Shown: positions 8,129 to 62,977, counted from the stretch's first letter. The stretch is 64,000 nt of DNA from a virus (IMGVR_UViG_3300011113_000675:78444-142443), one strand, 5' to 3'. The notes: generated by a model not told the origin, from the letters alone. Numbers and translations are program-made.

Positions 8129-8797
8129 CTACGGTGTGAATAATCCTCCATCCACATCAGGTTTCAATTTGTCATAAACTTTAGACGCCTTTTCACTCAT
8201 TTTACTAAATAAATCACATACTATATCACTAATTTTTCTTTCCACATTTTCCACAAACGTTTGGTCTTTGACTGCATCCGCTAAAGCACTATTCAAGAAT
8301 TTTGATTCAATCGTATTGGGCCCACTTTGTCCCATAATTCTTTCATGTACCGCCTTGGATAAAGATTCTGCAACTAACTTGGATAACTCATCACAACTTC
8401 TCAATGATTGAGCAAACTTCGTTGGATCTGAAGACAATGAGGACTTTAAAGATTCTTTGAAATAATCCGCTAATTCCAATGATTTCATCAGCGAATCGAC
8501 CAACGGTCCAATGATTGTTTGAAAAACTCCTGTCATCCCGTCTCCGAAAATTTTACCTATAAAGTCTTTCAATTGTTCGTTCAATAAATTTATTTCTTCT
8601 AAGTAATTTATTTCGTAAACAAGTTTGTAGGCGATTTTTTCTTGTTTCGATTTTGTCAAATAACCGAAATTTTTGATATTATATTCAGATTCAAAAATCA
8701 TAAGAATCCTATTCTTCACCAAACTTTGTTCGATCAAGAGTTTTTCTTTTCTTTCTTTTGTTTCTAAGATTGCTTTTTTTATTTTTATTTCTAACAT
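8129..8797 (-). CDS. Hypothetical helical protein with leader ending LLIEQ
   Basis: 222-aa ORF in operon with 8806-10074. Confidence 0.7.
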   Translation of the reverse strand: MLEIKIKKAILETKERKEKLLIEQSLVKNRILMIFESEYNIKNFGYLTKSKQEKIAYKLVYEINYLEEINLLNEQLKDFIGKIFGDGMTGVFQTIIGPLVDSLMKSLELADYFKESLKSSLSSDPTKFAQSLRSCDELSKLVAESLSKAVHERIMGQSGPNTIESKFLNSALADAVKDQTFVENVERKISDIVCDLFSKMSEKASKVYDKLKPDVDGGLFTP

Positions 8798-8805
8798 GAG
8801 TGTAA

Positions 8806-10074
8806 TTACTTAATTCTCCATATTGAATCCGGTCCTTGTGTTAATGGTCCTCCCGCCACACGACCTGATAAAACATCTAACATATTATCAATATTTCGAC
8901 CACCTCTTCCTAATACACCAAATTTTCCATAGTGCTGGTCTTTACAAGCCTGAACAATTCTTCTTGCTTGTGCAATTGTTGTAGGGTCAACGACGATACT
9001 ATTCTTTTGTTGGAATGATGTGTAAAAATCTCTGATATTTTTTCTACAAACTGATTTATCAATCGATTGGTTATCTAAAATATCACTTAAAATACTATCT
9101 CGTCTTCTAAGTGTGGATTGTTGATTAGGATCGGAGTATCCTGCCGCTGGCCCAATTTGCGTTGGTTCTGTAACAGGTTCATCTGTTTGTGTTTGTTGGG
9201 TGACAGGTTGGGCTTCTTGTGCCGCAGGTTGTGTTTCTTTTTGGTTGAGTATCTGTGAAAAGAATTCTTCGGAATTTCTACTCTCGAAATTTAGCTCCCC
9301 AATACTACTTTTCATTGTAAAGTTTGAATCTCCATCACAACTCCATTCACCGTTGTCAGTGAAAACTCCATTTGTGAACTGTTTCCAAGTTTTCTTCCCA
9401 TCTGCCCAACTGTTAAATCTCCAAATCAGGTTTGTTATTTTAAATATTACTTCAAATTCATTTTTACCCTCTATGGTATTTTGTAAGTGGCTAAAGCTCG
9501 AATAAAGATACTTGTTCGCTCGAAAAAAAGTTTGAATACATGAGAATATGTCATCAGGTTGAGTTTGTTGTGTGACAGGCTGTGTTCCTTTTGAGATTTG
9601 TCCAAATTCCTTTGGTGCTAAACGTAACTGCGAATCCGAAGTTTTTACTTTACTTTGAACTGGATTAGCCGCAACCCTCATTTTTTCATCTGATTTTTTG
9701 AGTAATGCTTTGATGGTCTCAGGTCCAACTATACCATCCTTCTTCAATGGTTCCCCCTCATCATTTTTATTTTCTGATTGAAATTTTTCAACTTGTGCTT
9801 TAGTTAAACTACCAAAATCATCATCAACCTCACCTGATTTACTAATATTTGTATATCCCGCAGAAATCAACAACTCCTGTATTTTACCCACAATTGGACC
9901 TTTCATTCCAGATTTAACAACAGATTTACCATTTTTTATATCATCAATTGTCAAGTCTGTCGTTTGTTCCAAAACTAAAGTCTTATTTTCAGTCAAGGTT
10001 TTAGACAAATCATACTTCATCATCAACTTTACTCTCTCTAATGCTTCTTGGGGGTTATATTTCGCCTTAACCAT
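8806..10074 (-). CDS. Peptidoglycan-binding-domain protein with leader
   Basis: G..V..IQELL..AGY...DDDFGSLTKAQVEKFQ...DGIVGPET; leader ends VLEQ; TATTTAT upstream. Confidence 0.8.
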   Translation of the reverse strand: MVKAKYNPQEALERVKLMMKYDLSKTLTENKTLVLEQTTDLTIDDIKNGKSVVKSGMKGPIVGKIQELLISAGYTNISKSGEVDDDFGSLTKAQVEKFQSENKNDEGEPLKKDGIVGPETIKALLKKSDEKMRVAANPVQSKVKTSDSQLRLAPKEFGQISKGTQPVTQQTQPDDIFSCIQTFFRANKYLYSSFSHLQNTIEGKNEFEVIFKITNLIWRFNSWADGKKTWKQFTNGVFTDNGEWSCDGDSNFTMKSSIGELNFESRNSEEFFSQILNQKETQPAAQEAQPVTQQTQTDEPVTEPTQIGPAAGYSDPNQQSTLRRRDSILSDILDNQSIDKSVCRKNIRDFYTSFQQKNSIVVDPTTIAQARRIVQACKDQHYGKFGVLGRGGRNIDNMLDVLSGRVAGGPLTQGPDSIWRIK

Positions 10075-10106
10075 ATTTACTAATTTATATTATAAATACA
10101 CGTAAT

Positions 10107-10352
10107 TTACCAAATTTGATTTGCGGCTCCTCTTGTAAGACCTGTTTCCCATTTTTCGCCAGATGCACCTAATCTATTCGCTTTACCTCTTGTAATTGTA
10201 TATGAGTCAGACCATTTTGGGACTTTTCCTCCACCACCTCCTGAAGATGCCGGAGCAGCCCCAGCATCATCTTGTTCACCCATTTCATCTTTAGTTCCCA
10301 TTTGAGAATACTTAGAAAAAAAATCTATAAGGAAGTCAACGTCTAAAATCAT
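10107..10352 (-). CDS. Hypothetical protein with duplicated TRGxAN motif
   Basis: KWSDSYTITRGKAN / KWETGLTRGAAN; TATTTAT upstream. Confidence 0.65.
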   Translation of the reverse strand: MILDVDFLIDFFSKYSQMGTKDEMGEQDDAGAAPASSGGGGGKVPKWSDSYTITRGKANRLGASGEKWETGLTRGAANQIW

Positions 10353-10400
10353 ACTAATAAATATTTGTTTAATTAGAAATTTTTTTTTACTCTTTGAAAG

Positions 10401-10931
10401 ATGAAAAAGATTATACCTCTAATTCTTTTATTTTTAACCTCTTGTCAATTCTACGTCACCGAAATTAAGGATGTTACGTTGAGTGGAAAGTATGTTGTTT
10501 CCAAATTGGAAATTACAAATGTTGACCAAAATCAAACTAAAGACCAAATTTACTTAGTGGGAGACACGTACGTAAATCAAAATCTCCCCCATCCATTCAA
10601 TAACATCAAGATTAACAATTTTTACATACACTTTGACTATTCTACAGTCAAAATGGATTTCCTCGGGTCAACAAAGTCAGGTGAAGATATTTGGAGATAT
10701 GGTGTCAATCCTGATGAAATTTTTTATAACATATTTGGAACGACTCCATTCCACTCTGGGTACCTTCAATACGACTACACATCAAAAGATGGAAGCCACG
10801 TTTTGTTAACATTTATGATCGAAGATGACGGTTTTGAAACACTTCAACTAAAATCCTCAGGAGCTTGGTTTGGTGGTAAATTTGGTCAAAAACAAGTTAT
10901 GACAATTCAATTAACTCGAGTTGGTCCTTAA
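10401..10931 (+). CDS. Lipoprotein (lipocalin-like beta protein)
   Basis: Lipobox LTSC; LSGKYVV strand; beta-rich. Confidence 0.65.
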   Translation: MKKIIPLILLFLTSCQFYVTEIKDVTLSGKYVVSKLEITNVDQNQTKDQIYLVGDTYVNQNLPHPFNNIKINNFYIHFDYSTVKMDFLGSTKSGEDIWRYGVNPDEIFYNIFGTTPFHSGYLQYDYTSKDGSHVLLTFMIEDDGFETLQLKSSGAWFGGKFGQKQVMTIQLTRVGP

Positions 10932-11369: not shown

Positions 11370-12824
11370 TTATTTTATCACTTTCATTCTATTCATCATT
11401 TCCACAATTTTGTTTTTTTGATTGTGGAAGGATTCTTGTAAATCTTCATCCATTTCAAATTCTTCCTCTTCTTCAACTTCCTCTTCATTGTAACTTGACC
11501 TTTGATATGGTCCTGCACTACCAGGTCCTTTGGAATCAAAGTCATATGGAGGGTCCATTTCACCATAAATTCCTTGAGAACCTGATACATCAACTTCATC
11601 TATTTCATCGGCAAATGCTGATTCCATGAACATAAAGTCCTCTTCTTCTTCCTCTTCTTGTCCTCCGCATTCTTCGTAATAACCAGTAATTAAATCTTCT
11701 CCGAACCAATCTTTACAGATGTCATGTAATTCATCAAACATCTCATCACCTTCAGGATTTTGTCCCGTTTCTGCAAAGAAATTATCGATTGCCGAAGAAA
11801 TTATATTGTCAGCATATTCAAATTCATCACTGAAATCATTACACATATCCCATTGAGTTTTTTCAAATTCAATGAAAGTCAACAAGTTGTCATAAGTTAT
11901 CCCTCTTCTTCTGAATCTAATCATGTTCTCAGGTGCTTGCTCTTCCATTTCTCCCTCGGTTGGATATACTTCATCAGGACCGTCACTTATAAAGTCATAT
12001 GCTGGTTTGATGTTACTAATATCCATGTCGGGAGCATTACCACCTCCTGTATAACCTTGTTCATCGATAGTTTCCATCCCCTTCAACAAATCTTTGTCGA
12101 TAAGACCAACTTTTATTAAACGGTTCAATAAAGTTTTTCTAGGAAGTTTTCTCAAATATCTAATTACAATCGGCGGGATATCTTCCCCATATTGACCGAA
12201 TAAATTATTCAAGATTTCATTTTCTTTTGGAGATGGGATAAATGAAGCTCTCGATCTTGATGCTTTCATCCCTCTCGGACCTTTCTCATAAGGCATATCA
12301 TCCATGAATTGTTCGTCCATTTCTTCACCAGCTTGTAAGTCCTCGAATCCATCATCTTCATTGTCAGGATCTTCGTATTCACCTTCTGATTTTATTTTTT
12401 TCATGTGGTGCATTTTTTCAAAAGTATCTACACTATTAGATGGTCCTTCGATGTAATCAAATCCTGCAGATGGGTTCAAATCTTCTTCATCATAGATATC
12501 ATCTAATTTGCCAACACCTTCTTCCATTTCTCTGCCACCACATTGTTCACATATACCTTCAGCCATTCGACCTCCGCATTGTTCACACATTTCTTTTTCT
12601 TCAACTTGTTCGTTGATTCCCATATTTGTATATTTCTTAACCTCACCTTTGTTGTTAACAACCATTCCGTCTTTGTCACCAGCGAAATCGTAGGTATATA
12701 AAGGTTGAGTGTTTGAAACCTGTGGTTGCATGGTTTGGTATCCATTATACAAACTCTTGTGTTGGTCCAAAATATTTTGTTTCTCTGTTGCAGATAATTG
12801 ACCTAATCCAAAGTATCCTCTCAT
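11370..12824 (-). CDS. Very acidic modular protein; putative head core/internal polyprotein
   Basis: Repeated INEQ/MDEQ/IDEQ/MEEQ, tandem CEQCGG, repeated P.YDF.S.GP; TATTTAT upstream. Confidence 0.65.
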   Translation of the reverse strand: MRGYFGLGQLSATEKQNILDQHKSLYNGYQTMQPQVSNTQPLYTYDFAGDKDGMVVNNKGEVKKYTNMGINEQVEEKEMCEQCGGRMAEGICEQCGGREMEEGVGKLDDIYDEEDLNPSAGFDYIEGPSNSVDTFEKMHHMKKIKSEGEYEDPDNEDDGFEDLQAGEEMDEQFMDDMPYEKGPRGMKASRSRASFIPSPKENEILNNLFGQYGEDIPPIVIRYLRKLPRKTLLNRLIKVGLIDKDLLKGMETIDEQGYTGGGNAPDMDISNIKPAYDFISDGPDEVYPTEGEMEEQAPENMIRFRRRGITYDNLLTFIEFEKTQWDMCNDFSDEFEYADNIISSAIDNFFAETGQNPEGDEMFDELHDICKDWFGEDLITGYYEECGGQEEEEEEDFMFMESAFADEIDEVDVSGSQGIYGEMDPPYDFDSKGPGSAGPYQRSSYNEEEVEEEEEFEMDEDLQESFHNQKNKIVEMMNRMKVIK

Positions 12825-12983: not shown

Positions 12984-12995
12984 TACTTCTCTACT

Positions 12996-18012: not shown

Positions 18013-18633
18013 ATGGAATTTTTAATTACAGAATCTCAACTAAGAGTTCTTCTTCAAGAAGAAGAAAAATCCCAATTAGGGTTATACGTGAAAAACATGT
18101 ACGCCTTCACAAAACAAATGATAAATAAAGTTTTCAAATCTTATGGTATAAACTTAAGAATGTTGTTAACTTGGGGTACATCAGTTGGAGGTTTGGTTCT
18201 TCCTTTAGACCAATATTTGAGAACTCAACATTTAGGTTTGAATGAAGACCAAAGAATGTTGGTATTAGTTGGAATTATTTTTGCTTTATTTTTTGAGACC
18301 AAGAGACCATTTATGAAAATTATGTCCTTGATTGAAAAAAATGGTTTAGAAGATATTTTTCAGGATGGTCTTCGAAAAGGAACTGAATTGAGAGATGCAT
18401 TTACAAACTTTTTATCGTCCGCTAACACAGGAGTTGGAACATTTTTGGAAGCTATCGCCTACAGTTTCCTAATTCCTATTATTACAGATGTTCAATCCGT
18501 ATTAGGTCAAACTGAAGACATCGAAACCGCAGCAATATTGATTGTTGAAAGATTGTTGGCCGCGGGAGTTATCTTAATTGGAAGACAAACTTTGATTGAT
18601 GTAGTGAAAAACGTTTTGAAAAAATTAGGATAA
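18013..18633 (+). CDS. Leader-bearing protein with hydrophobic helices
   Basis: MEFLITESQLRVLLQEE leader. Confidence 0.75.
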   Translation: MEFLITESQLRVLLQEEEKSQLGLYVKNMYAFTKQMINKVFKSYGINLRMLLTWGTSVGGLVLPLDQYLRTQHLGLNEDQRMLVLVGIIFALFFETKRPFMKIMSLIEKNGLEDIFQDGLRKGTELRDAFTNFLSSANTGVGTFLEAIAYSFLIPIITDVQSVLGQTEDIETAAILIVERLLAAGVILIGRQTLIDVVKNVLKKLG

Positions 18634-19030: not shown

Positions 19031-19297
19031 CTATAATTCTTCAATTTCGACAACCAATTGGGCCGGTCCTTTTATGACTCTGTGCCAAACAAATTTGGGA
19101 ATGTGAATATGACTGGCCCGAGACAATTTGACCGGCAATTCATTTTCCATTTGAAATGACCATCCACCATCTTCAATTATGGTCACATTTCGGTCATTTA
19201 AGTCTTGGTGCCACTTCAATTCTTCTTCCTCCACATCAGGGTTAAATGTCCTGATTTTTTTATTATCTACTTCTATTTGTTCAAAAGGAAAATCCAT
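19031..19297 (-). CDS. Cupin-like small protein
   Basis: LKWHQD...IHIPKFVWHRVIKG. Confidence 0.55.
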   Translation of the reverse strand: MDFPFEQIEVDNKKIRTFNPDVEEEELKWHQDLNDRNVTIIEDGGWSFQMENELPVKLSRASHIHIPKFVWHRVIKGPAQLVVEIEEL

Positions 19298-19920
19298 TAC
19301 CAAGAATTTGAAGATGATAATCCGAGTTGTTTTGCGTACCGACCTACATTACAGCTCCAGTATCCTGCGGTGGTTCTGTCTTTCTTTTGGTCACACTTAT
19401 GTCGTGCTCTGAATGATTTTGCCGCTCCCTTATTTTTGTTTCTAACTCTCAAGTTAGGATCTCCAAAAGATACTTTTTTGATTCCTCCACTCGGAGATTT
19501 CACATAAACCGCAAATTTCTTAGGTCCACCTGAAGTTCTAAATGGTTTATTTAACTTGACATTTTTACCTCTATGTTTTGCTTCCTCTAAAACATCCTCG
19601 TCATCGTCTTCTTCCATCAAAAATGGAGCATCGAGATAAATTAATTGTCCTTTGACCATTACTTTCTTACCCAAATCAGATTCTACCATTAACGTATCCT
19701 CCTCATTCAATTCAATCTTACCAGCTTCCCACAATCTTCTTACTTCATTTACCAAATCAAAATAACTTTCAGAATATGCTCTGAAAATATTATTTGTCAA
19801 AGTCAATTCATTATCAACATGGTATTTCAATGCTTCAGAAAGTTCAACAGACTCTTTAATAATTAAAGATTTGTTCAAATGGTCTTCTAATGTTTCTTTG
19901 ATAAGTTGTCTTAAATCCAT
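19297..19920 (-). CDS. Phage protein with basic C-terminal domain (DUF5754-like)
   Basis: Acidic N-part ending VLEE, then KKFAVYV...KKVSFGD...SFRARHKC...AGYWS. Confidence 0.6.
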   Translation of the reverse strand: MDLRQLIKETLEDHLNKSLIIKESVELSEALKYHVDNELTLTNNIFRAYSESYFDLVNEVRRLWEAGKIELNEEDTLMVESDLGKKVMVKGQLIYLDAPFLMEEDDDEDVLEEAKHRGKNVKLNKPFRTSGGPKKFAVYVKSPSGGIKKVSFGDPNLRVRNKNKGAAKSFRARHKCDQKKDRTTAGYWSCNVGRYAKQLGLSSSNSW

Positions 19921-26264: not shown

Positions 26265-27092
26265 ATGATACTAAAGAATGGGTCTAAGGGAGAAGACGTT
26301 AAAAAACTCCAAGCGAAATTAGGTTTAGTAGCCGACGGGGTTTTCGGGTCTGGAACCGAAGCAGCGGTAAAAAAATGGCAAGCCGCAAACGGATTAACTG
26401 CTGACGGTATTGTTGGCGAAGGAACTTGGACAAAGATGTTCGGAGAAAAACAACTTATCACAGAACCATCAACTCCAATAGTTAATGCTGGTCCTTTGAA
26501 GTTGGAAAACCTTAAAGGTCACATCCCTGATGCGGTCATTGCTCAGATTCCTGATGCAGCTAAAAAATTCAACATTTCTAATCCATTACGTTTGGCACAC
26601 TTCTTGGCTCAGTGTGGTCATGAATCTGCTGGATTCAAAGCGGTTCAAGAAAACTTGAACTACTCTGCCGATGGTTTGAAAAAAATATTCCCTAAGTATT
26701 TCCCTGGTAATCTTGCTGAAGGTTATGCAAGAAACCCTGAGAAGATTGCTTCCAAAGTTTATGGAGGTAGAATGGGTAATGGAGATGAAACAACCAAAGA
26801 AGGTTTCAAATTTAGAGGACGTGGTTACATTCAATTGACAGGAAAAGACAACTATACAAAATTTGCGAAATTTATCGGAGAAGATACAGTTGGAAATCCT
26901 GACTTAGTTGCAACAAAATATCCTTTAGCATCTGCGGCATTTTTCTTTGATTCCAACAAATTATGGGAAATCTGCGATAGAGGAGCGGATGATGCAACAG
27001 TAACTGCAGTAACAAAAAGAGTTAATGGTGGTACTATCGGTCTTGCAGATAGAATCAAACACTTCAAAGAGTACTTTGGATTGTTGAAATAA
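26265..27092 (+). CDS. Endolysin: peptidoglycan-binding domain plus glycoside hydrolase family 19
   Basis: DGVFGSGTEAAVKKWQ; AHFLAQCGHES; FRGRGYIQLTG; VTKRVNGG. Confidence 0.93.
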   Translation: MILKNGSKGEDVKKLQAKLGLVADGVFGSGTEAAVKKWQAANGLTADGIVGEGTWTKMFGEKQLITEPSTPIVNAGPLKLENLKGHIPDAVIAQIPDAAKKFNISNPLRLAHFLAQCGHESAGFKAVQENLNYSADGLKKIFPKYFPGNLAEGYARNPEKIASKVYGGRMGNGDETTKEGFKFRGRGYIQLTGKDNYTKFAKFIGEDTVGNPDLVATKYPLASAAFFFDSNKLWEICDRGADDATVTAVTKRVNGGTIGLADRIKHFKEYFGLLK

Positions 27093-31385: not shown

Positions 31386-31478
31386 TGGTGGCTGGGAGTG
31401 GGTTCGAACCACTGGCTCATCGGTGTTCACCCGATTGCTCTACCATGAATTCCGAAGAACTCCTGAGCTACCACAACC
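31386..31478 (-). tRNA. Aberrant tRNA-Phe(GAA)-like gene with D-loop hairpin insertion, CCA encoded
   Basis: ATCGG-GTGAACA-CCGAT anticodon arm, AGTGG-TTCGAAC-CCACT T arm, GAGTTC-TTCG-GAATTC inside D loop. Confidence 0.7.
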
Positions 31479-37216: not shown

Positions 37217-37917
37217 TAAATTAAATTATTATCTTTTTGATACTGAACCAATTTATCTTTTGTTTTATTTCCAAATATACCATCGGTAACTAATTTAGTA
37301 CCTGTACCTTTTTCATTCAAGAAATGTTGAAGCTGGACCACTTTGGGTCCCCGACTATCAAATTTTAAAGGAAAATCAGATGTGTCTGTTTCATCAGACG
37401 TATCAGAATCCGAATCACCAGTTTGACTTGAGTATGTTTCTCCACCGTCTTTTTTTATAGTAAAATTCGAATCTCCATCACATGCCCACTCCCCTCTTTC
37501 GGCGAAAACAAGGTTCTTCATATTGACCCATCTTAGCTTGTTATCTGAGTTAGGTTTATAAAATATCCATATTTCTGTTGGAGAAATTCTAATACCTTTC
37601 GAATCATCCCAATTTATGATTTCAACTCCTTTTTCTCTGAAATGATTCAGGATACAATTGAAATTGAAGACCCAAGCAAATGATTTAGACGAAAACGTAT
37701 AATCTCCAGAGGTGACAAAATAATTGTCATTTCCATCACATTCCCATGTTCCAGTGTCTAAAATTTCCATATTTTTTGTATGGGTCCATTTTCCATCATC
37801 ATAGAATTCCCATGATTCTGATCTGCCAATATAATGCAAAATATATGAATCATATTCCCTCCAGGTATATGTTCTTGCATCAGCAGCTTTCTTAACACAT
37901 TCTCTATTTCTACTCAT
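37216..37917 (-). CDS. Protein with two GxWxCDG repeats and C-terminal peptidoglycan-binding domain
   Basis: GTWECDGNDN, GEWACDGDSN; GPKVVQLQHFL...DGIFGNKT. Confidence 0.75.
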   Translation of the reverse strand: MSRNRECVKKAADARTYTWREYDSYILHYIGRSESWEFYDDGKWTHTKNMEILDTGTWECDGNDNYFVTSGDYTFSSKSFAWVFNFNCILNHFREKGVEIINWDDSKGIRISPTEIWIFYKPNSDNKLRWVNMKNLVFAERGEWACDGDSNFTIKKDGGETYSSQTGDSDSDTSDETDTSDFPLKFDSRGPKVVQLQHFLNEKGTGTKLVTDGIFGNKTKDKLVQYQKDNNLI

Positions 37918-37918
37918 A

Positions 37919-40937: not shown

Positions 40938-40998
40938 AATTAAATCTTTTTTATATAAATATATTGGTAATATCAATTATTTTGTATACTTTTGTTTC

Positions 40999-41253
40999 AT
41001 GATAAATTGGAACATTGGATCGAAAATAAAGTCTCTCGCAAAAAAAACAATTCACGTTATTGAGTCGATTGAGACTGTTGAAGGAAAAACTGTGATTTTC
41101 ACTGAAGACACAAAATGTTTTCCAGCTGAAGATGTTAAAGAACATTACGACTCGTTCGTAGCAGAATACTTTATGAAAGTGTTTTCAGGACAGGAACCCA
41201 CCATCGAAGATCGAGAAAAGATGAAAAAAATATTCAGGGCAAAAAAACAGTGA
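40999..41253 (+). CDS. Hypothetical protein
   Basis: TACTTTTG box upstream. Confidence 0.6.
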   Translation: MINWNIGSKIKSLAKKTIHVIESIETVEGKTVIFTEDTKCFPAEDVKEHYDSFVAEYFMKVFSGQEPTIEDREKMKKIFRAKKQ

Positions 41254-41269
41254 TTTATAATAAGTAATG

Positions 41270-43723
41270 TTATTCCTTCAAATGATTAAACCTGAAGACA
41301 ATGTTTTCCTCTTCAGGTTTATCTGAAAACAACGGACCCAAATATTCTCTGAAGTTGTTTCTCAACTTCATCTCGATTTGTTTTTCAACCTTTTCGGGAG
41401 TAAGGTTTGGTATTTCACCTTTCAAATAGTTTTCCGGTGTTGGAACTTGTTTTCCGTCTATCACTTTCAAAACGTCTTGAATATCCACGTTTACGACGTT
41501 CTTGTCGTCAATGTCTTCAACGGAAGAAATTTTGAACTTGATACTAATTTTCGGTTCCGCACCATAAGACGGAGATTTTGCGGTTGAAACTTTTTGAGAT
41601 ACTAATGAAGGTGCCATATCTCTAAATGCCTTTCGTTTAAGTTCCATAACTTTCTCATGAGTAACACCTCTCTCAATCATTTCCATTTCCTGACGAGACA
41701 ATAGATAAACTTGGGACTCTAAGGTGTCGTTCCATCTATATGGTCGAGACGCATTCATTTGCTTCCCTGTGGAGGAAGAATATCTATCTGAGGTTTCATA
41801 CCACTTACCGTCTTTGTAGATATAAACTGGATACCACCCATAAGACTCGACAATATATATCTTTCCATCCATTGTTGCTCTCCAATATCCTCTTAGGTTT
41901 GAACCCTTAAATGGAAGTTGTGCTTTGGTATAAACCTTGGCATTATAATTTGGAGTACGTTTCCCTTTCATCTTTCTCGGATCGATAAAGTTGTCCTTTG
42001 TCAATGATGAATAATCACCATCTTGTCGATAGTTCAAAAGATATAATTCCAAAATATATGGTGCAAAATCGGGATCGATTCCGAAATAAGGTAAATAATC
42101 CTTGATTGCTGTTTGTAAGTCTCTTTTGTTGTTGTAATTACTTTTTTGGGTATTAAGAATTTTGAATAGCTTGACAATCACCTTATTCGGTTCAATATCA
42201 ATGTTGACCGCCTCATTCATCATATCATCACCACAAGCGGTAAGATAATATTCCATCAAATCATCACCATACCAATTTTGGGCCAAGGGGAAAATTATAT
42301 CGATAAATTTTTCATAACTACCCTCGGGAAAATAATCTTCATTGACAGTGAAAAAATGGTCAATCGCCATAGCGATAATGTTACCGGAATATTCGTATTC
42401 ATCGGCATAGTCTCCACAAAGATCTGGAAATTCCTCCTGTGTCTCAAGAATATATTTCATGAAGGATTCCTTATTAACCCTTCGTTTCAATCTATCCATA
42501 AAGTCAGACTCAGACAATAATTCATGCTGTGATTCAACAATTCTTTGAAGTTGTAATTCTGTCAAAATGTAATCTTTTTTCATTTTCGATTCCGTAACTT
42601 GTATAGGTATTGTGGGTAAATCTGGATTATTCCAACCTAATTTTGGATAATTTGTACTTAAATATATATCATCCATCGGATTTTTAGACAGAGCTTTTTC
42701 AAGTTCAGATGCAATATTTTTTTGGTCATTGAAACTAATTCTTATAAGTTTTATTCCATTCTCCTTACAGAATTTGTTTTTCGCCAAATCGTTCAATACC
42801 CTTTCTTTGTATCCCTCCAAACCTCTGTACCTACCCTCTACAGGAAAAAAATGTTGTCTCCCATCGAATTCTGCGATTACAACGGTTCCATCTTCTTTAA
42901 CGAAATAAGCGTCCGATTTTAATTTATTTCGATTTCCACTTCCTTTAAAACTGTACGCCCCTAATTTTTTTTCTGTATCGACCGTATATCCTGAAACTTT
43001 TAGTGTGTCCACCATAGTGTATTCTCCCTTCCACTTGATATTTCTTTCCTTGTTGCACACAGGACAAGCAAATTTTAAGTGGTTATCAAAGTATGCTACG
43101 GTACCCTTAGGATAAAGATTTACTGGTGTCTCGTGATTAGTACATTTGAAATTTTTTACAAAGAGTCTAGTTTGATTCGATCCTTCACTTCTCGGAACTA
43201 AATAAAAATTTTCTTTTTCGAAACTTAGCGTTGTATCTTGAGGAACCGTACTCATAAACTTTTCTATCTTGGAATCAAGATCTTGTGGATACATTTGATT
43301 AAGCCATTCAGAATAACATTTTTTACATGAGTTTTGTTTTAATTGTTCCAATCTGATTTCACCAACCTCTCCATGAACTACTCCTTCTGAATCTGTTTTT
43401 TCACATATTACTCCATCGATGGTTTTGTGATGCCTCTCATCTTTACCATACGTAACATTATCAAAGTTAAAATCAGGAAATAATTCTTTAAGCTTTTCAG
43501 TAGTCTGTTTGTTGTCCTTATCTTTTAATTCGGACAACATATTTTGCATGGTAAGAGTTTGGTCACCAGTACGATTTCTTCTATTACTAATCCATACTGC
43601 TATATCATTGTATTCGGGACTTTCATAAAAATCCTTCAATGTATTGAATTGAGAAATATATTCTTTAACTGAATCTATATCCCATTTTGATTCTCTACCT
43701 TCCGAAATTACTTCCATACTCAT
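41270..43723 (-). CDS. Multidomain protein: zinc ribbons plus Vsr/DUF559-like endonuclease fused to further modules
   Basis: CxxC pairs; SDAYF...IAEFDGRQHF...NDLAKNKFCKENGIKLIRIS; internal second leader MKKDYILTELQLQRIVES. Confidence 0.75.
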   Translation of the reverse strand: MSMEVISEGRESKWDIDSVKEYISQFNTLKDFYESPEYNDIAVWISNRRNRTGDQTLTMQNMLSELKDKDNKQTTEKLKELFPDFNFDNVTYGKDERHHKTIDGVICEKTDSEGVVHGEVGEIRLEQLKQNSCKKCYSEWLNQMYPQDLDSKIEKFMSTVPQDTTLSFEKENFYLVPRSEGSNQTRLFVKNFKCTNHETPVNLYPKGTVAYFDNHLKFACPVCNKERNIKWKGEYTMVDTLKVSGYTVDTEKKLGAYSFKGSGNRNKLKSDAYFVKEDGTVVIAEFDGRQHFFPVEGRYRGLEGYKERVLNDLAKNKFCKENGIKLIRISFNDQKNIASELEKALSKNPMDDIYLSTNYPKLGWNNPDLPTIPIQVTESKMKKDYILTELQLQRIVESQHELLSESDFMDRLKRRVNKESFMKYILETQEEFPDLCGDYADEYEYSGNIIAMAIDHFFTVNEDYFPEGSYEKFIDIIFPLAQNWYGDDLMEYYLTACGDDMMNEAVNIDIEPNKVIVKLFKILNTQKSNYNNKRDLQTAIKDYLPYFGIDPDFAPYILELYLLNYRQDGDYSSLTKDNFIDPRKMKGKRTPNYNAKVYTKAQLPFKGSNLRGYWRATMDGKIYIVESYGWYPVYIYKDGKWYETSDRYSSSTGKQMNASRPYRWNDTLESQVYLLSRQEMEMIERGVTHEKVMELKRKAFRDMAPSLVSQKVSTAKSPSYGAEPKISIKFKISSVEDIDDKNVVNVDIQDVLKVIDGKQVPTPENYLKGEIPNLTPEKVEKQIEMKLRNNFREYLGPLFSDKPEEENIVFRFNHLKE

Positions 43724-44580: not shown

Positions 44581-44964
44581 ATGGAAAAACCGAAAGTTCA
44601 TAATGTAACGGAATGTCCCTCATGTAAAATCCCAAAAGGATGGGGGGAAGAAATTATAATTTGTAATCATGAATTATATTGTGGTAAATTACTTTGTTTC
44701 AAGGAAGGTGCAAAATTCTCAATGCACTACCACATGATTAAAGATGAAACTTGGTATGTTGATGAAGGTCAATTCATTTATAGATGGATTGATACAGAAA
44801 CTGCACAAGTTAATGAACAAATCTTGAATGTCGGAGATGTCGTAAGACAACGACCAGGACAACCACATCAACTCGAAGCTCTTACCAAAGGTGTGGTCTT
44901 CGAAGTATCAACAGAACACTTTGATTCGGATTCATATAGAATTTGGAAAGGAGATACACAATGA
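44581..44964 (+). CDS. Cupin (sugar isomerase-like)
   Basis: KGWGEE, FSMHYHMIKDETWYV, PGQPHQL, EVST. Confidence 0.8.
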   Translation: MEKPKVHNVTECPSCKIPKGWGEEIIICNHELYCGKLLCFKEGAKFSMHYHMIKDETWYVDEGQFIYRWIDTETAQVNEQILNVGDVVRQRPGQPHQLEALTKGVVFEVSTEHFDSDSYRIWKGDTQ

Positions 44965-45362
44965 AGATTTGGTTAAATGGTTGTTTTGATGTCCTACATC
45001 ACGGACATTTCAAATTAATACAACATGCTACCTCATTTGGTGGTCAAGTTATGATTGGAATCGATTCTGATGAACGAGTAAAAAAACTAAAAGGAGAAGG
45101 GAGACCATTTCACTCCGAAAGTGAAAGAGCATTCAATCTTAAACAAATCTCAGGAGTAGATTCCGTAGTGGTGTTTGATTCTGATGAAATGTTAAGAGAA
45201 ATTCTCGAACGTTATAAACCCGATAAATTTATTATAGGCTCAGATTATCTTGGAAAAAAAATAATCGGACAAGAGTTTGCAAAACAAGTTGTAATCTTCA
45301 ACAGACTTGATAAATTTTCAACCACTGAAATACTAAATTATGCAAATAACGATAATAGGTGA
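44961..45362 (+). CDS. HldE/RfaE domain II-like nucleotidyltransferase
   Basis: NGCFDVLHHGH, GIDSD, KGEGRP, GSDY, FSTT. Confidence 0.85.
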   Translation: MKIWLNGCFDVLHHGHFKLIQHATSFGGQVMIGIDSDERVKKLKGEGRPFHSESERAFNLKQISGVDSVVVFDSDEMLREILERYKPDKFIIGSDYLGKKIIGQEFAKQVVIFNRLDKFSTTEILNYANNDNR

Positions 45363-46428: not shown

Positions 46429-46731
46429 TTAAAAAAGACCTAAATCGGAAACTTCTACTCCCGTTAAATCATATACGAGTCTTCTGACTACTTTTCCAGC
46501 TTCCTTATCACTCAGTAAAAATAAGTCCATAATAGAACTGAAAATTCTTTCATCGATGTTGAAGTAATACGCATTCATTTCAGGTGAATAAACTAGCACC
46601 GCGGTTTCTCGTCCATTCTTTTCGAAAATCTCCAATGTTGGAATTTCGGAATTTTTCAATTCCCCTAATTCGTTGAGTAAGTATTTTGTTGCGATTGTCT
46701 CTAATCTTGACTTATTTATCTCATATTTCAT
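46429..46731 (-). CDS. Small leader-bearing paralogue-family protein
   Basis: MKYEINKSRL...LFLL..KE...VV. Confidence 0.65.
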   Translation of the reverse strand: MKYEINKSRLETIATKYLLNELGELKNSEIPTLEIFEKNGRETAVLVYSPEMNAYYFNIDERIFSSIMDLFLLSDKEAGKVVRRLVYDLTGVEVSDLGLF

Positions 46732-47059
46732 CTAAATCTATATGGTTAAAGGTTCCGAAATGCATTACTTTTGGTGGTTCGATACCAAGGTAGTTTGAAA
46801 ACCATTTTCTGATTGATTCCTTTTTTTCTTCATAATCAAGTGAAAACATATTTACTAACGGGTCTGAAATTTTTGCCCTATCGAAGAATACTCTGTCTTC
46901 AGATTCATTACTCATAAACACTATTTCTCCATTTTTGGTGGCAAAAACCCATTGTTTGTAATTTTTTTTACCTGGAACCCAAACTAAATCATTATATGCA
47001 TCATTCAAAAAATATGCCCCCAAGTCAATCAGTCTCGATTCTGTGATTATTACCTTCAT
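46721..47059 (-). CDS. Small leader-bearing paralogue-family protein
   Basis: MKVIITESRL...MFSL...IRKWF. Confidence 0.7.
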   Translation of the reverse strand: MKVIITESRLIDLGAYFLNDAYNDLVWVPGKKNYKQWVFATKNGEIVFMSNESEDRVFFDRAKISDPLVNMFSLDYEEKKESIRKWFSNYLGIEPPKVMHFGTFNHIDLDEI

Positions 47060-57686: not shown

Positions 57687-57734
57687 AAAAAAGGGGATGG
57701 GGATTAGAACGGATGGTGCGGTATACGAATATCC
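57687..57734. repeat. Intergenic repeat copy 1
   Basis: AAAAGGGGATGGGGATTAGAACG...GCGGTATACGAATATCC. Confidence 0.8.
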
Positions 57735-57735
57735 A

Positions 57736-57897
57736 TCATGACATCTTGTTCTTTAATATCTTCATTTCCCTTTCCAAACCTTCAATCTTATATCGAATCA
57801 TCCGTTGCAAATCCTCCTCACCATACCTGATGGCAGATGCCAACATCTTATTCAAATTTTCAATTCTATCCTCCAAATCATTAAGTTGCTTTTTCAT
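57736..57897 (-). CDS. Small coiled-coil protein
   Basis: Not in ORF track; MKKQLNDLEDRIENLNKML...; TATATTTG upstream. Confidence 0.6.
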   Translation of the reverse strand: MKKQLNDLEDRIENLNKMLASAIRYGEEDLQRMIRYKIEGLEREMKILKNKMS

Positions 57898-57941
57898 AAG
57901 ACAAATATAAAAAAACCCCCACCATAAGTGAGGGTTTCAAA

Positions 57942-58529
57942 TTAAATTATTTCCCAATCGATTTCACCATACTGGTCATAATCATCATTCTCATCGTGAG
58001 TGGAACCGTCAATATCTTCCTCAACCTTTCTATAAGCCTCACATGCACTTCTTGCCATAACCGTATGAGTCCATGTCTGAACGCAAGAACGAGACGCCTG
58101 AATGGTATATTCCGTTTCCTCATTCTCTTCCCATCCTTCTTCATCCTCGCAGTCATCGTCAACAACATTCTTAGTTTTTTCGGGAACCCTTCCAAACTTA
58201 TCGATTGATTCCATCAAAGAATTTCTAAATGCAATCAAATCCTTCAGAGAATAAATCTTAAATGAATAACTTGAGCAAGGGGATCCATTCACACCAATCT
58301 CAACAAATTCCTTTGTTCCATCAAAACCATCCCAATGATAAATGGATAGACCTGAGGCATTATCAAATTCCAAAGTGGAATTATCAACATACATATAATC
58401 CAAATGCCAATCATCAGGATTGGAATCCTTCATATCTTTATACTCCTTCTCCAAATCACGAAGTTGGGTCAACGCTTTGGAATACTTCTTCTCAAAAGAT
58501 TTCTTCCACTTATCACTATATTCTGCCAT
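57942..58529 (-). CDS. Acidic hypothetical protein
   Basis: 195-aa ORF followed by terminator. Confidence 0.7.
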   Translation of the reverse strand: MAEYSDKWKKSFEKKYSKALTQLRDLEKEYKDMKDSNPDDWHLDYMYVDNSTLEFDNASGLSIYHWDGFDGTKEFVEIGVNGSPCSSYSFKIYSLKDLIAFRNSLMESIDKFGRVPEKTKNVVDDDCEDEEGWEENEETEYTIQASRSCVQTWTHTVMARSACEAYRKVEEDIDGSTHDENDDYDQYGEIDWEII

Positions 58530-58566
58530 AACAAATTTTTTATAATGATAAGAAAAATTTTTTAAT

Positions 58567-58609
58567 AAAAAAAGGGGTTGGGGATTAGAACGACCGAAGG
58601 GAGAACGGA
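58567..58609. repeat. Intergenic repeat copy 2
   Basis: AAAAGGGGTTGGGGATTAGAACGACCGAAGGGAGAACGGA. Confidence 0.85.
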
Positions 58610-58615
58610 AATATG

Positions 58616-59860
58616 TTACGCGAGATTTTTATCTGTAGTGTTGGGCTTTCCCATAGCGATAGAATTACTGAAATTCAAAAAGTCTGCCAACGTTTTTTTA
58701 CTATATATCCACTGAGATAAGAAAATCCGCAAGTCAGAATCAATATTCGTTTTTCCGTTGACTGAATTAATTATCATCTCTTTTGTAATTTTCTGGTCTG
58801 GTTTCAATTTAAAATAACGTCTAATTTCAGACAAAGTTGACATAACTTCATTTGGGTTTCTGAGGTGAACCTCATCATTTTTGAGTCGCCATAAATAAGT
58901 GTCGGAAATTTTACTTGACGCATTTTCATCAAACCCTTGTGTCATTAGGAATTTTTTCAATCTCTGAAAATTGGTTTCAGGTGTACCACTCGTATCGTCT
59001 CCTAAAAACTTTTTTATTACCCAATCATCAAATTTATTGGATTCATAAGGATGGAATTTATGATAATCATCTAGAATATGTTGAATCTCATGAATCATAA
59101 ATGACAATGCTTCATTTTCACTATAATCATTAGCCACCCTACAATTTATGTTTATAGGCACATCATACCCATTAATAAAAAGGCCTGGTCTTACCCATCC
59201 ACCCGCGATATCATCACTTATAACATATTCGATTGGTATTTGTGATAGTATCTTATTATATTCGGCAAAATGTTTCTCGACCGTGCTTTTATCGTATTTG
59301 AATGATTTAGCAAACCTATCTTTAGTCGATGGATGGTTCAACCAATTTCTCCACCAATCAGTCGCTTTTTTTAGTAAATCAGAATTATATTTAGATTTAC
59401 AACGATAAAAAATTTCATTTTGTTTTTTTATTTCATCTCCCTCCACCGTGCCTACACGAACAAAAGGTATGTTAATCGATTTAAGAACAGGAGCCTTACC
59501 TGGAATTGTATAAACAAAAGTCAAATTTCCTGTAAAACTTCCTTCTCCTACTGATTGATTAAAATCCAGTGTAATAAAATCTACCTGCTTTGATAGGATT
59601 TGTTTTGAATACTTTTTTTCTCCATCAAAATATTCGAAAATTGGGGAACTTTTTTCAATGTTCACAATTATCGGAGAGATATTATTTTTATTATGAATTG
59701 AAATTTTTCCAGATTTTTTTGGAAGTATGTAAGCTCCACTTTTAGGGTCCACACCATAAGCAACAATCAAAATATTATTATCAGAAAACAAAACTTTGTC
59801 CTCAGACTGTTCATTTAATACCACCCGATTGTATTGACTCTCTGTAATCAAAATATTCAT
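58616..59860 (-). CDS. Leader-bearing zinc metallopeptidase-like protein
   Basis: MNILITESQY...LNEQ; HEIQH plus downstream NEVMS glutamate. Confidence 0.65.
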   Translation of the reverse strand: MNILITESQYNRVVLNEQSEDKVLFSDNNILIVAYGVDPKSGAYILPKKSGKISIHNKNNISPIIVNIEKSSPIFEYFDGEKKYSKQILSKQVDFITLDFNQSVGEGSFTGNLTFVYTIPGKAPVLKSINIPFVRVGTVEGDEIKKQNEIFYRCKSKYNSDLLKKATDWWRNWLNHPSTKDRFAKSFKYDKSTVEKHFAEYNKILSQIPIEYVISDDIAGGWVRPGLFINGYDVPININCRVANDYSENEALSFMIHEIQHILDDYHKFHPYESNKFDDWVIKKFLGDDTSGTPETNFQRLKKFLMTQGFDENASSKISDTYLWRLKNDEVHLRNPNEVMSTLSEIRRYFKLKPDQKITKEMIINSVNGKTNIDSDLRIFLSQWIYSKKTLADFLNFSNSIAMGKPNTTDKNLA

Positions 59861-59883
59861 AACAATAAATACACAATATCATG

Positions 59884-59948
59884 AAAAAAGGGGTTGGGGA
59901 TTAGAACGACCGAAGGGAGAACGGACGGGGCGGTATACGAATATCCCC
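59884..59948. repeat. Intergenic repeat copy 3 (longest)
   Basis: Contains both the copy-2 core and the copy-1 tail GCGGTATACGAATATCC. Confidence 0.85.
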
Positions 59949-60007
59949 AAAATTTTTCCAAAAATTTTTTTTAACAAATGGGGTCATAAAAAAATAGGGG
60001 GGTCATG

Positions 60008-60301
60008 TTATAATAAACTTTCAGGGTCAGTGGTCTCAACTCCATCAATTTCTATGTCAGGAAACTTTCTCCTTAAATAATTAAACAACAACTTATTGGT
60101 ATCATCCCCGAACATTGCTTTCAACGAATTCGCTTCCGAACTATTTCCATAGTAAAACCTCTGTTCCCACCAATCCCCAAATATTCTTCCATCCCCAGTT
60201 CTGTACTCACGACTTACCGGACGAAATTTCAAATCATAGGTCGATTCCATGTACTTCTCAAAAATATCATACAATCTACTCTCGTTGATAATGTATCTCA
60301 T
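60008..60301 (-). CDS. Small leader-bearing paralogue-family protein
   Basis: MRYIINESRL...MFG...KFPD. Confidence 0.7.
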   Translation of the reverse strand: MRYIINESRLYDIFEKYMESTYDLKFRPVSREYRTGDGRIFGDWWEQRFYYGNSSEANSLKAMFGDDTNKLLFNYLRRKFPDIEIDGVETTDPESLL

Positions 60302-60322
60302 AACTTATTCCTTGAAGGGGGA

Positions 60323-60640
60323 TTAATAATATATTGAATAATAGGATGCAATAACCCTTTCATCGGGGAATCTCTTCTCAAACCATTTTACAAACATCTC
60401 CTCAGTTTGAGATTGATTCAAATTGAACATGGACATTATTGTAGAAAATAATTCTCGAGCAACTCCCAAGTGTCGTCCAAAATACTGAAATATTATATTA
60501 TCATTTTTATCAAGAAGGTCGAAGTCCTCCTTTTCCCCAAGTTGATGACTTGACTTTGTTCTGATCAGTCTCCCCACCGCCAAAGTAATATACTTATCAA
60601 TCAAGCTTACAAGTCTGTCTTCTGAAATAATATAATCCAT
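60323..60640 (-). CDS. Small leader-bearing paralogue-family protein
   Basis: MDYIISEDRL...MFNL...KWF..RFPD. Confidence 0.7.
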   Translation of the reverse strand: MDYIISEDRLVSLIDKYITLAVGRLIRTKSSHQLGEKEDFDLLDKNDNIIFQYFGRHLGVARELFSTIMSMFNLNQSQTEEMFVKWFEKRFPDERVIASYYSIYY

Positions 60641-60693
60641 AATTAATAAATACCCACAAAATAAAAAACCCCTCTATAAGGGAGGGGTTTCAA

Positions 60694-61107
60694 TTATATC
60701 TTCACAGGAGATTTTGCTTTTTTAATTATACATTCTCCAACATCCTTAAGTTTTCCCATAACTGTAAAAATATTATCCCCAGTAGACTTCGACAAGTCGG
60801 AGGTACAAGGTCCATATTTTGTGATATCCAATGGAAGTTGTTTAGTGTCCCCAATTTCTTTAGCAAGATCTTTACAACTTTTAGGTAGTTCCATATTCGG
60901 AGCGTCGAAATGAGTTTTGAAACAATCAACCACCATATCTGACGTGTTTGTTCCAGTGACCTGTTCCTTCACCACTGGCTTTACATCCCCAAGTTTTGAA
61001 TTTACCAATTTGGAGAAACTCTCAGTCATTACCTTCATTCCCCCTGTATGTTGCTCACGGATAGAGTTCTTCTCTTGTTCCGATAAATCATTTAATAAGT
61101 GTTTCAT
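60694..61107 (-). CDS. Leader-bearing Cys-containing protein
   Basis: LSEQEKNSIREQH...VVKEQ. Confidence 0.7.
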   Translation of the reverse strand: MKHLLNDLSEQEKNSIREQHTGGMKVMTESFSKLVNSKLGDVKPVVKEQVTGTNTSDMVVDCFKTHFDAPNMELPKSCKDLAKEIGDTKQLPLDITKYGPCTSDLSKSTGDNIFTVMGKLKDVGECIIKKAKSPVKI

Positions 61108-61142
61108 AATTTTAAGTTTATTATAAATACTCAACACTCCCG

Positions 61143-61190
61143 AAAAAGGGGCTGGGGATTCCTACGACCGAAGGGAGAACGCGGATCCGA
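61143..61190. repeat. Intergenic repeat copy 4
   Basis: AAAAAGGGGCTGGGGATT...ACGACCGAAGGGAGAACG. Confidence 0.8.
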
Positions 61191-61203
61191 ACAACAATAA
61201 AAA

Positions 61204-61887
61204 TTATTGTATACTCTCCAATAAACAATCCGCTTCCGATCTCCACAATTCACCAATGTAGGCTTTCAAATCCTCAAGACTATCTCCACCCATTTTATTA
61301 TTCATACGTAACAAATGGTGCTCAATAGAATACTTTTCAAATGTACACCCATAATTCTCAAAGTTACTTGTTTTGTGAACTGATTTGGAACCATTCATGT
61401 GACTCAATGTCATATACTGCTGAATTACATCGAAATCAACAATGTAAAACGTGGGTTGAAAGTTATTCACACAATCTATCAAACAAATTATATACCCACC
61501 ATCAATATTTTGGTAGGGACGCAAATTCCTTAACCTGTAATGATTATTCTTTCCCAAAAAAGTAACCTTGATTTCGAAACTCTTTATACGGGAATATTTT
61601 GACCAATGATTATGAGTATATACGAAAACCTTTCCATCATCCATAAGTAAATTCCCCCTTGAGGCATAAACCCTAATCTCACAGTCCCCACAATTTTCAG
61701 ATTCAGGAACTTCCAACAATCGATCAACCTCTTGAATAATCTTCTTTTCCAAATACTTTCCGTAAGCAGATGGGGAATAACCCAAATAACACTCCAAAAT
61801 AAAATCGTTGAAGGGTAAATGATACGGAACATCATTGTTCTTACTATTCTGAAATCTTTCAATCGCCAATTCTAACTTCGTCTTCAT
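61204..61887 (-). CDS. Restriction-endonuclease-like PD-(D/E)xK protein
   Basis: YGKYLE...GDC...FEIKV...NLRPYQ; TAACTTTG upstream. Confidence 0.55.
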   Translation of the reverse strand: MKTKLELAIERFQNSKNNDVPYHLPFNDFILECYLGYSPSAYGKYLEKKIIQEVDRLLEVPESENCGDCEIRVYASRGNLLMDDGKVFVYTHNHWSKYSRIKSFEIKVTFLGKNNHYRLRNLRPYQNIDGGYIICLIDCVNNFQPTFYIVDFDVIQQYMTLSHMNGSKSVHKTSNFENYGCTFEKYSIEHHLLRMNNKMGGDSLEDLKAYIGELWRSEADCLLESIQ

Positions 61888-62014
61888 ATATAGAGTTTTT
61901 TTACAAAGTTAAAACTAATTTGACAATCACCAAAAATTTCCCAAAAATTTTTTTCCTTAAATAGGGGTGATTTTATTTAGGGGGGTTGTGTTCTATAAAA
62001 TAAAAAACCCCTCG

Positions 62015-62353
62015 TTAATGGGAGGGGTTCATTTTCTTATAATCCAAATAACCTTGTTTTATTTTGTTATTGATTACCTTGTTTTTAACATACTTGAAGA
62101 ATTCCTCCACATCATCAACTTCTCTCTCATTGTCATACTCCAAACTACCCAATGTTTTCCATAAGACTTCTGATTTATAATCTTCGAAATCTTCAGGTTC
62201 AAAACCACCAACATTTATATCAGATATTGCCTCATCCACATAATTGTTAATTATTTCAGACCTTCTTAAATAAAAAGGTTTATCATTTTCATTGATTACC
62301 ATTTTAACAATATTTTCCAAATCTGATTCAGTAAGTCTTACAATCTTTTTCAT
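62015..62353 (-). CDS. Leader-bearing acidic protein
   Basis: MKKIVRLTESDLENIVKMVINE. Confidence 0.75.
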   Translation of the reverse strand: MKKIVRLTESDLENIVKMVINENDKPFYLRRSEIINNYVDEAISDINVGGFEPEDFEDYKSEVLWKTLGSLEYDNEREVDDVEEFFKYVKNKVINNKIKQGYLDYKKMNPSH

Positions 62354-62430
62354 ATTAATAAATACCCAAAAAGGGTCATTTTTTCCCCAAAAATTTTTTT
62401 GCGTAATATAGGGGATTATCCCCCCTAAAC

Positions 62431-62631
62431 TGACATTCTGACACCCCGTAAGGGGGGATACGGGGGAGGGGGGTCCCCATATGGGGGGGTAGACCCCATG
62501 CCAGAGGGGAGGTCTTAGATATATTTATTTATCCCCCGCCCCCTGTGACTTATCCACAAGTTATTAATGTGGATAACTTGTGGACATAAACAGAATAATA
62601 TATTGTGGATAAGTGGTATGACAGATAGTCA
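62431..62631. promoter_or_regulatory. Putative replication origin part 1: G-tracts, DnaA boxes, palindromes
   Basis: TTATCCACA 62550-62558; TGTGGATAA 62568-62576 and 62604-62612; four G-runs 62452-62489. Confidence 0.65.
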
Positions 62632-62674
62632 ATAATAAAAAGTACGTAGGGGTAACCGAAGAATGTTCTGTATA

Positions 62675-62977
62675 TTACTTAAGAAATATAATTAACCGAG
62701 AGGGGTTAAGACCATAGTATGTATATAACCATTCTCTAACTACCTTCTTGATTTCTTTCTCTGACAAGTCAAACATGTCTCTCAATCTCGAGGACACATC
62801 TCCGTAGAACACAACAGAGTCATCCCCTTCATCATACTCAAACACATGTGTATTGTTGATTGGATTAATATACAATACTGAGTTGTCTAATGGTTCCTCA
62901 ATAAGGTCGGGGAACTTATCGTTAACAAACTTAACTGCCAGATCCATTAACCGTGATTCTCTGATGATTACTTTCAT
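62675..62977 (-). CDS. Small leader-bearing paralogue-family protein
   Basis: MKVIIRESRL...MFDL..KE.KKVVREWL. Confidence 0.7.
   Translation of the reverse strand: MKVIIRESRLMDLAVKFVNDKFPDLIEEPLDNSVLYINPINNTHVFEYDEGDDSVVFYGDVSSRLRDMFDLSEKEIKKVVREWLYTYYGLNPSRLIIFLK

Follow-up and report, generated by a model that had tools for sequence, protein, structure and literature searches.

In bacteriophage T4, the prohead protease gp21 cuts after L/I-x-E, and N-terminal capsid-targeting sequence (CTS) propeptides of 10–19 amino acids (aa) load the internal proteins (IPs) into the prohead core before being cleaved off (PMC9026906, PMC3012670); with Asp in place of the Glu of the CTS, processing in T4 is blocked (PMC9026906). 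The internal proteins of T-even phages form a diverse set in which the CTS is the only common part (PMC3012670). A comparable arrangement is described here for the virus contig IMGVR_UViG_3300011113_000675 (142,443 bp), in whose final 64 kb (henceforth the window, to which coordinates refer unless the contig is named) unrelated proteins begin with one of a few N-terminal leaders, or tags. In the T4 system of IPI, IPII, IPIII, the Alt propeptide and gp21, a short N-terminal tag likewise precedes unrelated proteins and ends in hydrophobic-x-Glu; the protease (S77), capsid and portal belong to the same families as here, the capsid cut site lies at the same position, and one group of the present tags (A1) starts similarly to Alt (M-x-x-L-I-T-E). 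Unlike in T4, however, the tags measure 22–49 aa instead of 7–19 aa, four or five tag families occur in one genome, the cargo reaches 550 aa and includes cell-wall enzymes, and the host phylum is Bacteroidota. Moreover, T4 has 4–6 tagged genes, as against about 27 in this contig, that is, in half a genome, and 38 or more in a relative whose genome is complete, so that the claim of an initial annotation, made by a model from the sequence, of a set far larger than that of T4 is borne out. The system can be regarded as a much larger form of the known T4-type kind.

Other described systems share only parts of this design. In the phages phiKZ, 201phi2-1 and SPN3US, at least 19 head-internal proteins are cut after Glu (S/A-x-E) by a diverged gp21 homologue, and these phages package and eject protein in large amounts (PMC9026906). 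Their propeptides are not a shared portable family and their P3 residue is small, whereas the protease encoded by the contig is a close member of S77 and Ile or Leu occupies P3. Encapsulin cargo-loading peptides are short and autonomous and address diverse enzymes into an HK97-fold shell; unlike the tags here, they are usually C-terminal, are retained and bind the shell protein, and no injection is involved. In extracellular contractile injection systems (PVC and others), an N-terminal region of about 50 aa loads unrelated effectors into a contractile particle that delivers them; signals of the PVC type, in contrast to the present tags, have no protease motif and serve to fill the tube lumen of a particle that contains neither DNA nor a capsid.

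At least 23 tagged open reading frames (ORFs) lie in the window and about 27 in the contig, in four or five leader families. When the N-terminal 45 aa of 198 gene calls were compared all against all by BLAST, three leader clusters and one pair emerged; the same clustering applied to T4 as a positive control recovers the ipI/ipII/ipIII tags and shows the MELITE start of Alt. The translations agree with the ORFs and N-termini listed in the initial annotation, and its leader types B and C match clusters, whereas its type A splits into A1 (MKxIITESxL, ten members, of which the gene at 46429 had been missed) and A2 (a 22-aa tag ending I-x-E-Q, with three members in the window and one outside). Type C has five members in the window and one, on an OmpA-like protein, directly 3' of the capsid gene; type B has four in the window and a further candidate, 60405, outside it. 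In leave-one-out profile searches, the omitted member was ranked first in 20 of 25 cases (A1, 9/10; A2, 4/4; C, 5/6; B, 2/5); 56482, 8806, 33267, 60405 and, marginally, 52400 are weak, and among these 56482, 8806 and 60405 were not recovered. All profile matches lie at an ORF start or at an internal ATG directly behind a TATTTAT heptamer (the true starts at 55625, 61107 and 33764), and the tag is always N-terminal. Past residue 40, the tagged proteins are mutually unrelated, except for shared peptidoglycan (PG)-binding domains and one trio of paralogues of about 100 aa. The likeness of A1 to Alt, over 6–7 residues, was taken as a resemblance and no more, because the A1 profile misses Alt at E<0.01.

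The leader conservation acts on the peptide and not on the DNA, because synonymous codons vary: in this genome, about 40% of identical tag residues differ in codon, and the invariant Leu, Arg and Ser of 101 A2 tags from IMG/VR are drawn from different codon boxes. Within the 30 nt upstream of the tagged genes, the DNA is not conserved beyond the 7-mer. By sequence, the tags are charged amphipathic helices, mostly net basic, and are not Sec or Tat signals. The motif [LIM]xE[QS] is 2.6 times commoner at residues 5–45 than elsewhere (P about 1e-6, with family members not independent), and [LIVM]xE closes the tags of types C, C2, B and D, the exception being 11370. The tagged genes of the window are given below, each with the E-value (E) of its leave-one-out search where one applies.

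18013–18633 (+): A1-tagged, 206 aa; E 1.5e-4, TATTTAT 6 nt upstream.
34957–35238 (-): A1-tagged, 93 aa; E 5e-6, TATTTAT upstream.
46429–46731 (-): A1-tagged, 100 aa, paralogue of 46721 and 62675; E 5.5e-3.
46721–47059 (-): A1-tagged, 112 aa; E 4e-6, TATTTAT 5 nt upstream.
54396–55625 (-): A1-tagged, 409 aa from the ATG at 55625; E 3.5e-5.
56482–57663 (-): doubtful A1 member, 393 aa; rank 40, unrecovered; TATTTAT 5 nt upstream.
58616–59860 (-): A1-tagged, 414 aa; E 6e-4.
60008–60301 (-): A1-tagged, 97 aa; E 6e-6.
60323–60640 (-): A1-tagged, 105 aa; E 3.5e-3.
62675–62977 (-): A1-tagged, 100 aa; E 1e-5.
50057–50464 (-): A2-tagged, 135 aa, with the 22-aa tag at 50399–50464; E 3.5e-11.
53793–54323 (-): A2-tagged, 176 aa, with the 22-aa tag at 54258–54323, used as metagenome query; E 7e-15.
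62015–62353 (-): A2-tagged, 112 aa; E 5e-9.
49421–49972 (-): fourth leader form, 25 aa ending LMSE|Q, on a protein of 183 aa; the same cargo has an A2 tag in metagenome relatives.
52400–53419 (-): B-tagged GH24 lysozyme with a PG_binding_1 domain (by domain matches), 339 aa, with the tag at about 53351–53419.
37919–39652 (-): B-tagged, 577 aa, cargo without named family; E 1e-4.
39642–40976 (-): B-tagged, with a C-terminal PG_binding_1 domain, true start uncertain; E 8e-4.
8806–10074 (-): doubtful B member, 422 aa, PG_binding_1; unrecovered; TATTTAT 17 nt upstream.
51082–52389 (-): C-tagged, 435 aa, with a 32-aa tag ending LMSE|Q; E 2e-13.
36821–37216 (-): C-tagged, 131 aa; E 3e-5.
33267–33764 (-): marginal C member, 165 aa from the ATG at 33764; E 0.1, rank 2.
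60694–61107 (-): C2-tagged by profile, 137 aa from the ATG at 61107, with a 48-aa tag ending VVKE|Q.
11370–12824 (-): C-like tag, 484 aa, boundary without Glu; E 1e-3.

The same tags recur in metagenomes, where conservation stops abruptly at the protease motif. Using the first 40 residues of 53793 as the query, 113 metagenome proteins were obtained in which the first 22–23 residues are 80–100% identical and the remainder is unrelated; the boundary Glu is present in all 113, although these matches were not selected for Glu. In IMG/VR, a degenerate DNA pattern of the A2 core matched at least 120 loci; among the matches listed, which come from 80 loci, 100/102 stand 5–6 codons after an ATG, and 66 have TATTTAT within 40 nt. 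Pooling gave 212 A2-tagged proteins belonging to 110 BLAST cargo families (median cargo 129 aa, maximum 476 aa), in which column information amounts to 2–4.3 bits through I-x-E-Q and to 0.3 bits beyond, and the P3 residue is Ile in 93% and I, L or V in 212/212. The C and C2 tags behave like A2 at their boundary. Among 1.84 billion proteins, a profile of the six C tags picks out 362 cluster representatives (E<=1e-3), and in almost every one the match starts at residue 1; the tag is the sole part shared by 51082 and the gene after the capsid gene. The leader of 60694, initially put at about 20 aa, is in fact a tag of 48–49 residues ending L-V-x-E-(Q/E), common to 130 representative proteins. The initial statement that similarity stops at the Glu needs correcting for 11370, which has no Glu at its boundary.

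The leaders are interchangeable modules, as had been proposed and as the BLAST clusters, the profiles and the unrelated remainders indicate; two swaps illustrate the point. The cargo of 49421 is joined in relatives to an A2 tag at exactly the same residue, and one member of a B-tagged hydrolase family bears an A1 tag. The leader of 49421, initially set apart as a fourth form, looks like a diverged A2 tag. The profiles also carry over to relatives, as the initial annotation had suggested checking: trained on this contig alone, they match 38/393 genes of a relative of 294 kb that is 100% complete. Most of these genes fall in a single region extending across the contig ends, and at least six more genes of the relative have a further tag type. 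No publication on the tag motif was found in the literature.

The tags co-occur with a T4-type head module, which lies elsewhere on the contig, outside the window, and supports the T4 link drawn initially. The module encodes a capsid protein of Pfam Gp23 (1e-71), a gp20-type portal (Portal_T4, 4e-77) and a Peptidase_S77 prohead protease of the gp21 family (PF03420 at 3e-22, phrog_207 at 9e-43; contig 51941–52657), and a T4-type large terminase (TerL) is present in the contig. Aligned with T4 gp21, the protease retains the His (NHP) and Ser (SSRG) motifs, and the LINE|A of the capsid protein aligns with the T4 gp23 cut site FLTE|A. The scaffold (contig 49993–51603) is very acidic (pI 4.3), with a density of [LIVM]xE 2.3 times that of the proteome. 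Among 15 tag-bearing IMG/VR contigs, S77 was found in 10, including 5/6 of those at least 90% complete. Judged by the capsid protein, the phage stands nearest among cultured phages to Flavobacterium phage vB_FspM_immuto (42% identity), Microcystis phage Mel-JY01 and Rhodothermus phage RM378. A pattern search found no A2 tag in phage immuto; it has tag families of its own, similarly designed, with genes at about 1803, 103762, 117587, 118588 and 125197, at 102250, 102836, 113144 and 123311, and at 25470 and 111631 of its record. Several of its tagged genes lie inside the head module, and its families likewise end in the S77 motif where conservation stops.

The contig is 46% complete according to CheckV, and neither it nor the region has DNA-level relatives among 50,697 phage records. 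Within the head module, on the opposite strand and outside the window, it carries a gene for a bS21 ribosomal protein of 63 aa (PF01165, 2e-7; contig 53228–53419, +), which places the phage in the bS21-encoding group of freshwater Bacteroidetes phages, whose genomes reach 331 kb (bioRxiv 10.1101/2021.10.11.463225) and for which roughly 50 complete genomes and published metatranscriptomes exist. The contig is about 46% of an uncultured Bacteroidota phage of about 300 kb belonging to this published group.

The modular tag and its tie to the T4-type head are well supported, and the leaders probably constitute, judging from the sequences, a greatly expanded capsid-targeting propeptide system of the T4 style. 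In such a system, the tagged genes would be expressed late, each from its own TATTTAT promoter, and the helical, mostly basic N-terminal tag of 22–49 aa would dock the protein onto the acidic scaffolding core inside the prohead. The Peptidase_S77 prohead protease would then cut after the tag-terminal hydrophobic-x-Glu, and possibly also at an earlier such site; the freed cargo would lie among the DNA and leave with it at infection. Packaging and injection are plausible. Because such a tag is autonomous, recombination can place any protein behind it, which would account for the more than 100 cargo families per tag.

Several points weigh against this interpretation. By chance, about 70% of proteins should have a [LIVM]xE at some point in a stretch of 60 residues, and hence only its conservation at the boundary carries weight; at 11370, the boundary has no Glu at all. 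The tags are 2–5 times longer than those of T4 and have no sequence similarity to the T-even CTS MKTYQEFIAE, and the tag profiles match nothing in T4 at E<0.01; as far as sequence goes, they are analogous or very diverged and lie outside the T-even CTS family. The A2 tag is absent from cultured phages in a tblastn search of the 50,697 phage records. The role of TATTTAT as a late promoter is deduced from its position alone. Furthermore, PG binders and hydrolases, which are several of the cargoes here, are parts of the tail and not of the head in T4. One tag-bearing contig that is 93% complete (G008) lacks S77 and was counted among these objections, but it lacks the capsid protein and the terminase too, and is uninformative, since its head module simply lies outside the contig.

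The cargo bears on where the tagged proteins reside. In this genome, GH24 lysozyme, PG_binding_1 and OmpA-like domains were confirmed, and tagged relatives carry M23, glucosaminidase and GH19 domains; most cargo is without recognisable family. Accordingly, the lysozyme and PG binders of the initial cargo list were confirmed and its peptidase appears as M23 on tagged relatives, whereas no nuclease was found among the tagged proteins in Pfam, PHROGs and PDB sequence searches, and the membrane-active helical proteins are unconfirmed. The same searches and one Atlas look-up gave no family for 37919, 51082, 54396, 56482, 58616, 11370 and the small cargoes. In an AlphaFold2 model of the tagged lysozyme 52400, the PG-binding and GH24 domains are confident, and residues 1–40 are helical (pLDDT 38–54) and not packed on the cargo domains. 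An untagged protein with PG_binding_1 and GH19 domains (26265–27092, +), distinct from this lysozyme, is by its domains the likely endolysin; as it can fill that role, the tagged cell-wall enzymes are probably virion-borne. A sigma-70 region-4 domain (PF04545) is the cargo of three A2-tagged metagenome proteins (P0078, P0086 and P0099), which, if packaged, would be candidates for injected transcription factors.

A virion-borne enzyme need not be inside the head, and the tags might instead address another virion compartment, such as the tail-tube lumen, baseplate or neck, or lead into the head without being removed, the hydrophobic-x-Glu then being a helix feature; they would in that case be akin to the N-terminal signals of extracellular contractile injection systems. 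The named cargo, both here and in relatives, is directed at the cell wall, and cell-wall enzymes are typically tail-associated; the endolysin role can fall to the untagged protein at 26265–27092, and translational coupling links an A2-tagged gene at contig 44583–45053 with the + strand structural block. This explanation is nevertheless considered unlikely: it leaves unexplained why the S77 motif stands at the end of conservation in four or five unlike families and again in those of immuto, and why a tagged gene adjoins the capsid gene, and we know of no tail-loading signal in T4-type phages. A sequence recognised by some other shared partner, such as a RiPP-like modifying enzyme, a chaperone or an export route, would also appear as one tag on hundreds of unrelated proteins, as is the mark of leader-guided maturases. 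The charged amphipathic helices are, however, unlike Sec or Tat signals, and a cargo of median 129 and up to 476 aa is far larger than RiPP cores, making such a partner very unlikely. The particular case of a radical-SAM maturase was rejected, as no radical-SAM domain (PF04055) was found in the contig or in five tag-bearing relatives 98–100% complete, while 14/14 control genomes match.

It could finally be supposed that the tags have no targeting function and that the shared starts are a by-product of a mobile cassette shuffling promoters and starts, or of fast-diverging paralogues. The tagged genes do form single-gene cassettes, with similar hairpin terminators and TATTTAT at their borders. 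The T4 control (NC_000866) also produced a false 'leader' cluster (…GTIQLSTT…), in which a conserved DNA element lying upstream had been translated as part of the ORF; care is therefore needed when N-termini are clustered from longest-ORF calls. Yet the upstream DNA here is unconserved beyond the 7-mer while codons differ within the tag, a start context would require far fewer than the 22–49 conserved residues, the tag starts at the ATG in 100/102 cases from the 80 loci, and the cargoes are not mutually alignable. A lack of function is for these reasons scarcely credible, and a DNA-level cassette or translated promoter was rejected, given that synonymous codons vary and the upstream DNA is not conserved.

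The heptamer TATTTAT lies within 70 nt upstream of 18/27 leader genes, and another six lie behind such a gene on the same strand, in agreement with the initial statement that almost all have the motif or sit in such an operon. It also precedes the portal, protease and scaffold genes and the long structural-block genes, and one copy stands before a group of small genes, among them a 385-aa ORF that has no annotation; altogether, 50/94 copies stand within 60 nt upstream of a same-strand start. In 21/50 of these promoter-proximal copies, for instance at 53419, 59860, 62353 and 62977, the motif ends 3–6 nt before the ATG. If TATTTAT is a -10-like element, the mRNAs concerned would be leaderless or nearly so, which may be linked to the phage's own bS21. 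At 49378–62030 (-), the tagged genes take the form of single-gene cassettes, with a GC-rich hairpin and T-run after one gene, often of the form AACCCCACC...GGTGGGGTT, and TATTTAT before the next; 24 terminator-like sites occur, compared with 10.1 +/- 3.2 in shuffles. The arrangement resembles the promoter-stem-loop cassettes by which T4-type phages shuffle their genes (PMC2839356, PMC4122927).

Further genes of the contig touch on the cargo set. An apparent five-gene operon at 36821–43723 (-) encodes an 817-aa protein, the B-tagged PG-binding protein, the B-tagged 577-aa protein, a 233-aa PG_binding_1 protein and the C-tagged 131-aa protein; from its composition, it could supply a cell-envelope-crossing set. 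Outside the window, an M23 peptidase (2e-24; contig 75798–76532, +) has an N-terminal extension of about 50 aa ending LSE|SS and TATTTAT 5 nt upstream, and may be a further tagged cargo. Three genes of the window are listed separately.

8129–8797 (-): unclassified N-terminus with the motif LLIE|QS; candidate member only.
19297–19920 (-): possible fifth tag type (MDLRQLIKE...), resembling an MNLQE... family of 6–7 members in the complete relative G007.
55682–56377 (-): S-AdoMet lyase family protein (PF23780, 1e-8) in the cargo island, outside the leader families, with an N-terminal extension of about 85 aa and TATTTAT 3 nt upstream; a possible anti-restriction factor by family.

Away from the block of eight ordinary tRNA genes at 766–6718, a 93-nt tRNA-SeC (anticodon tca) was called by ARAGORN at 31386–31478 (-).

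If the tags work like those of T4, abundant lake phages would bring dozens of pre-made proteins into Bacteroidota cells at infection, and the study of early host take-over and counter-defence in such phages would change. A broader proposal, to which slightly less than an even chance is given, is that about a tenth of the genes in freshwater Bacteroidota phages of about 300 kb form an arsenal of injected effectors, comprising hundreds of unrelated families that a few interchangeable helical tags of 22–49 aa would address to the capsid interior, to be released by the head protease and delivered together with the DNA. Among these families would be cell-wall hydrolases and sigma-70 region-4 proteins, and probably factors against host defence as well. 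Such an arsenal would be a phage counterpart of the effector repertoires of secretion systems and a natural, portable code for protein packaging. The 10-residue T4 tag, which brings just a few proteins into the T4 head, is already in use for delivering foreign proteins, and the present tags would then offer a small set of natural, sequence-defined packaging signals. At the same time, a location, the capsid interior, and a timing, before phage gene expression, could be predicted for hundreds of metagenome proteins now labelled 'hypothetical'.

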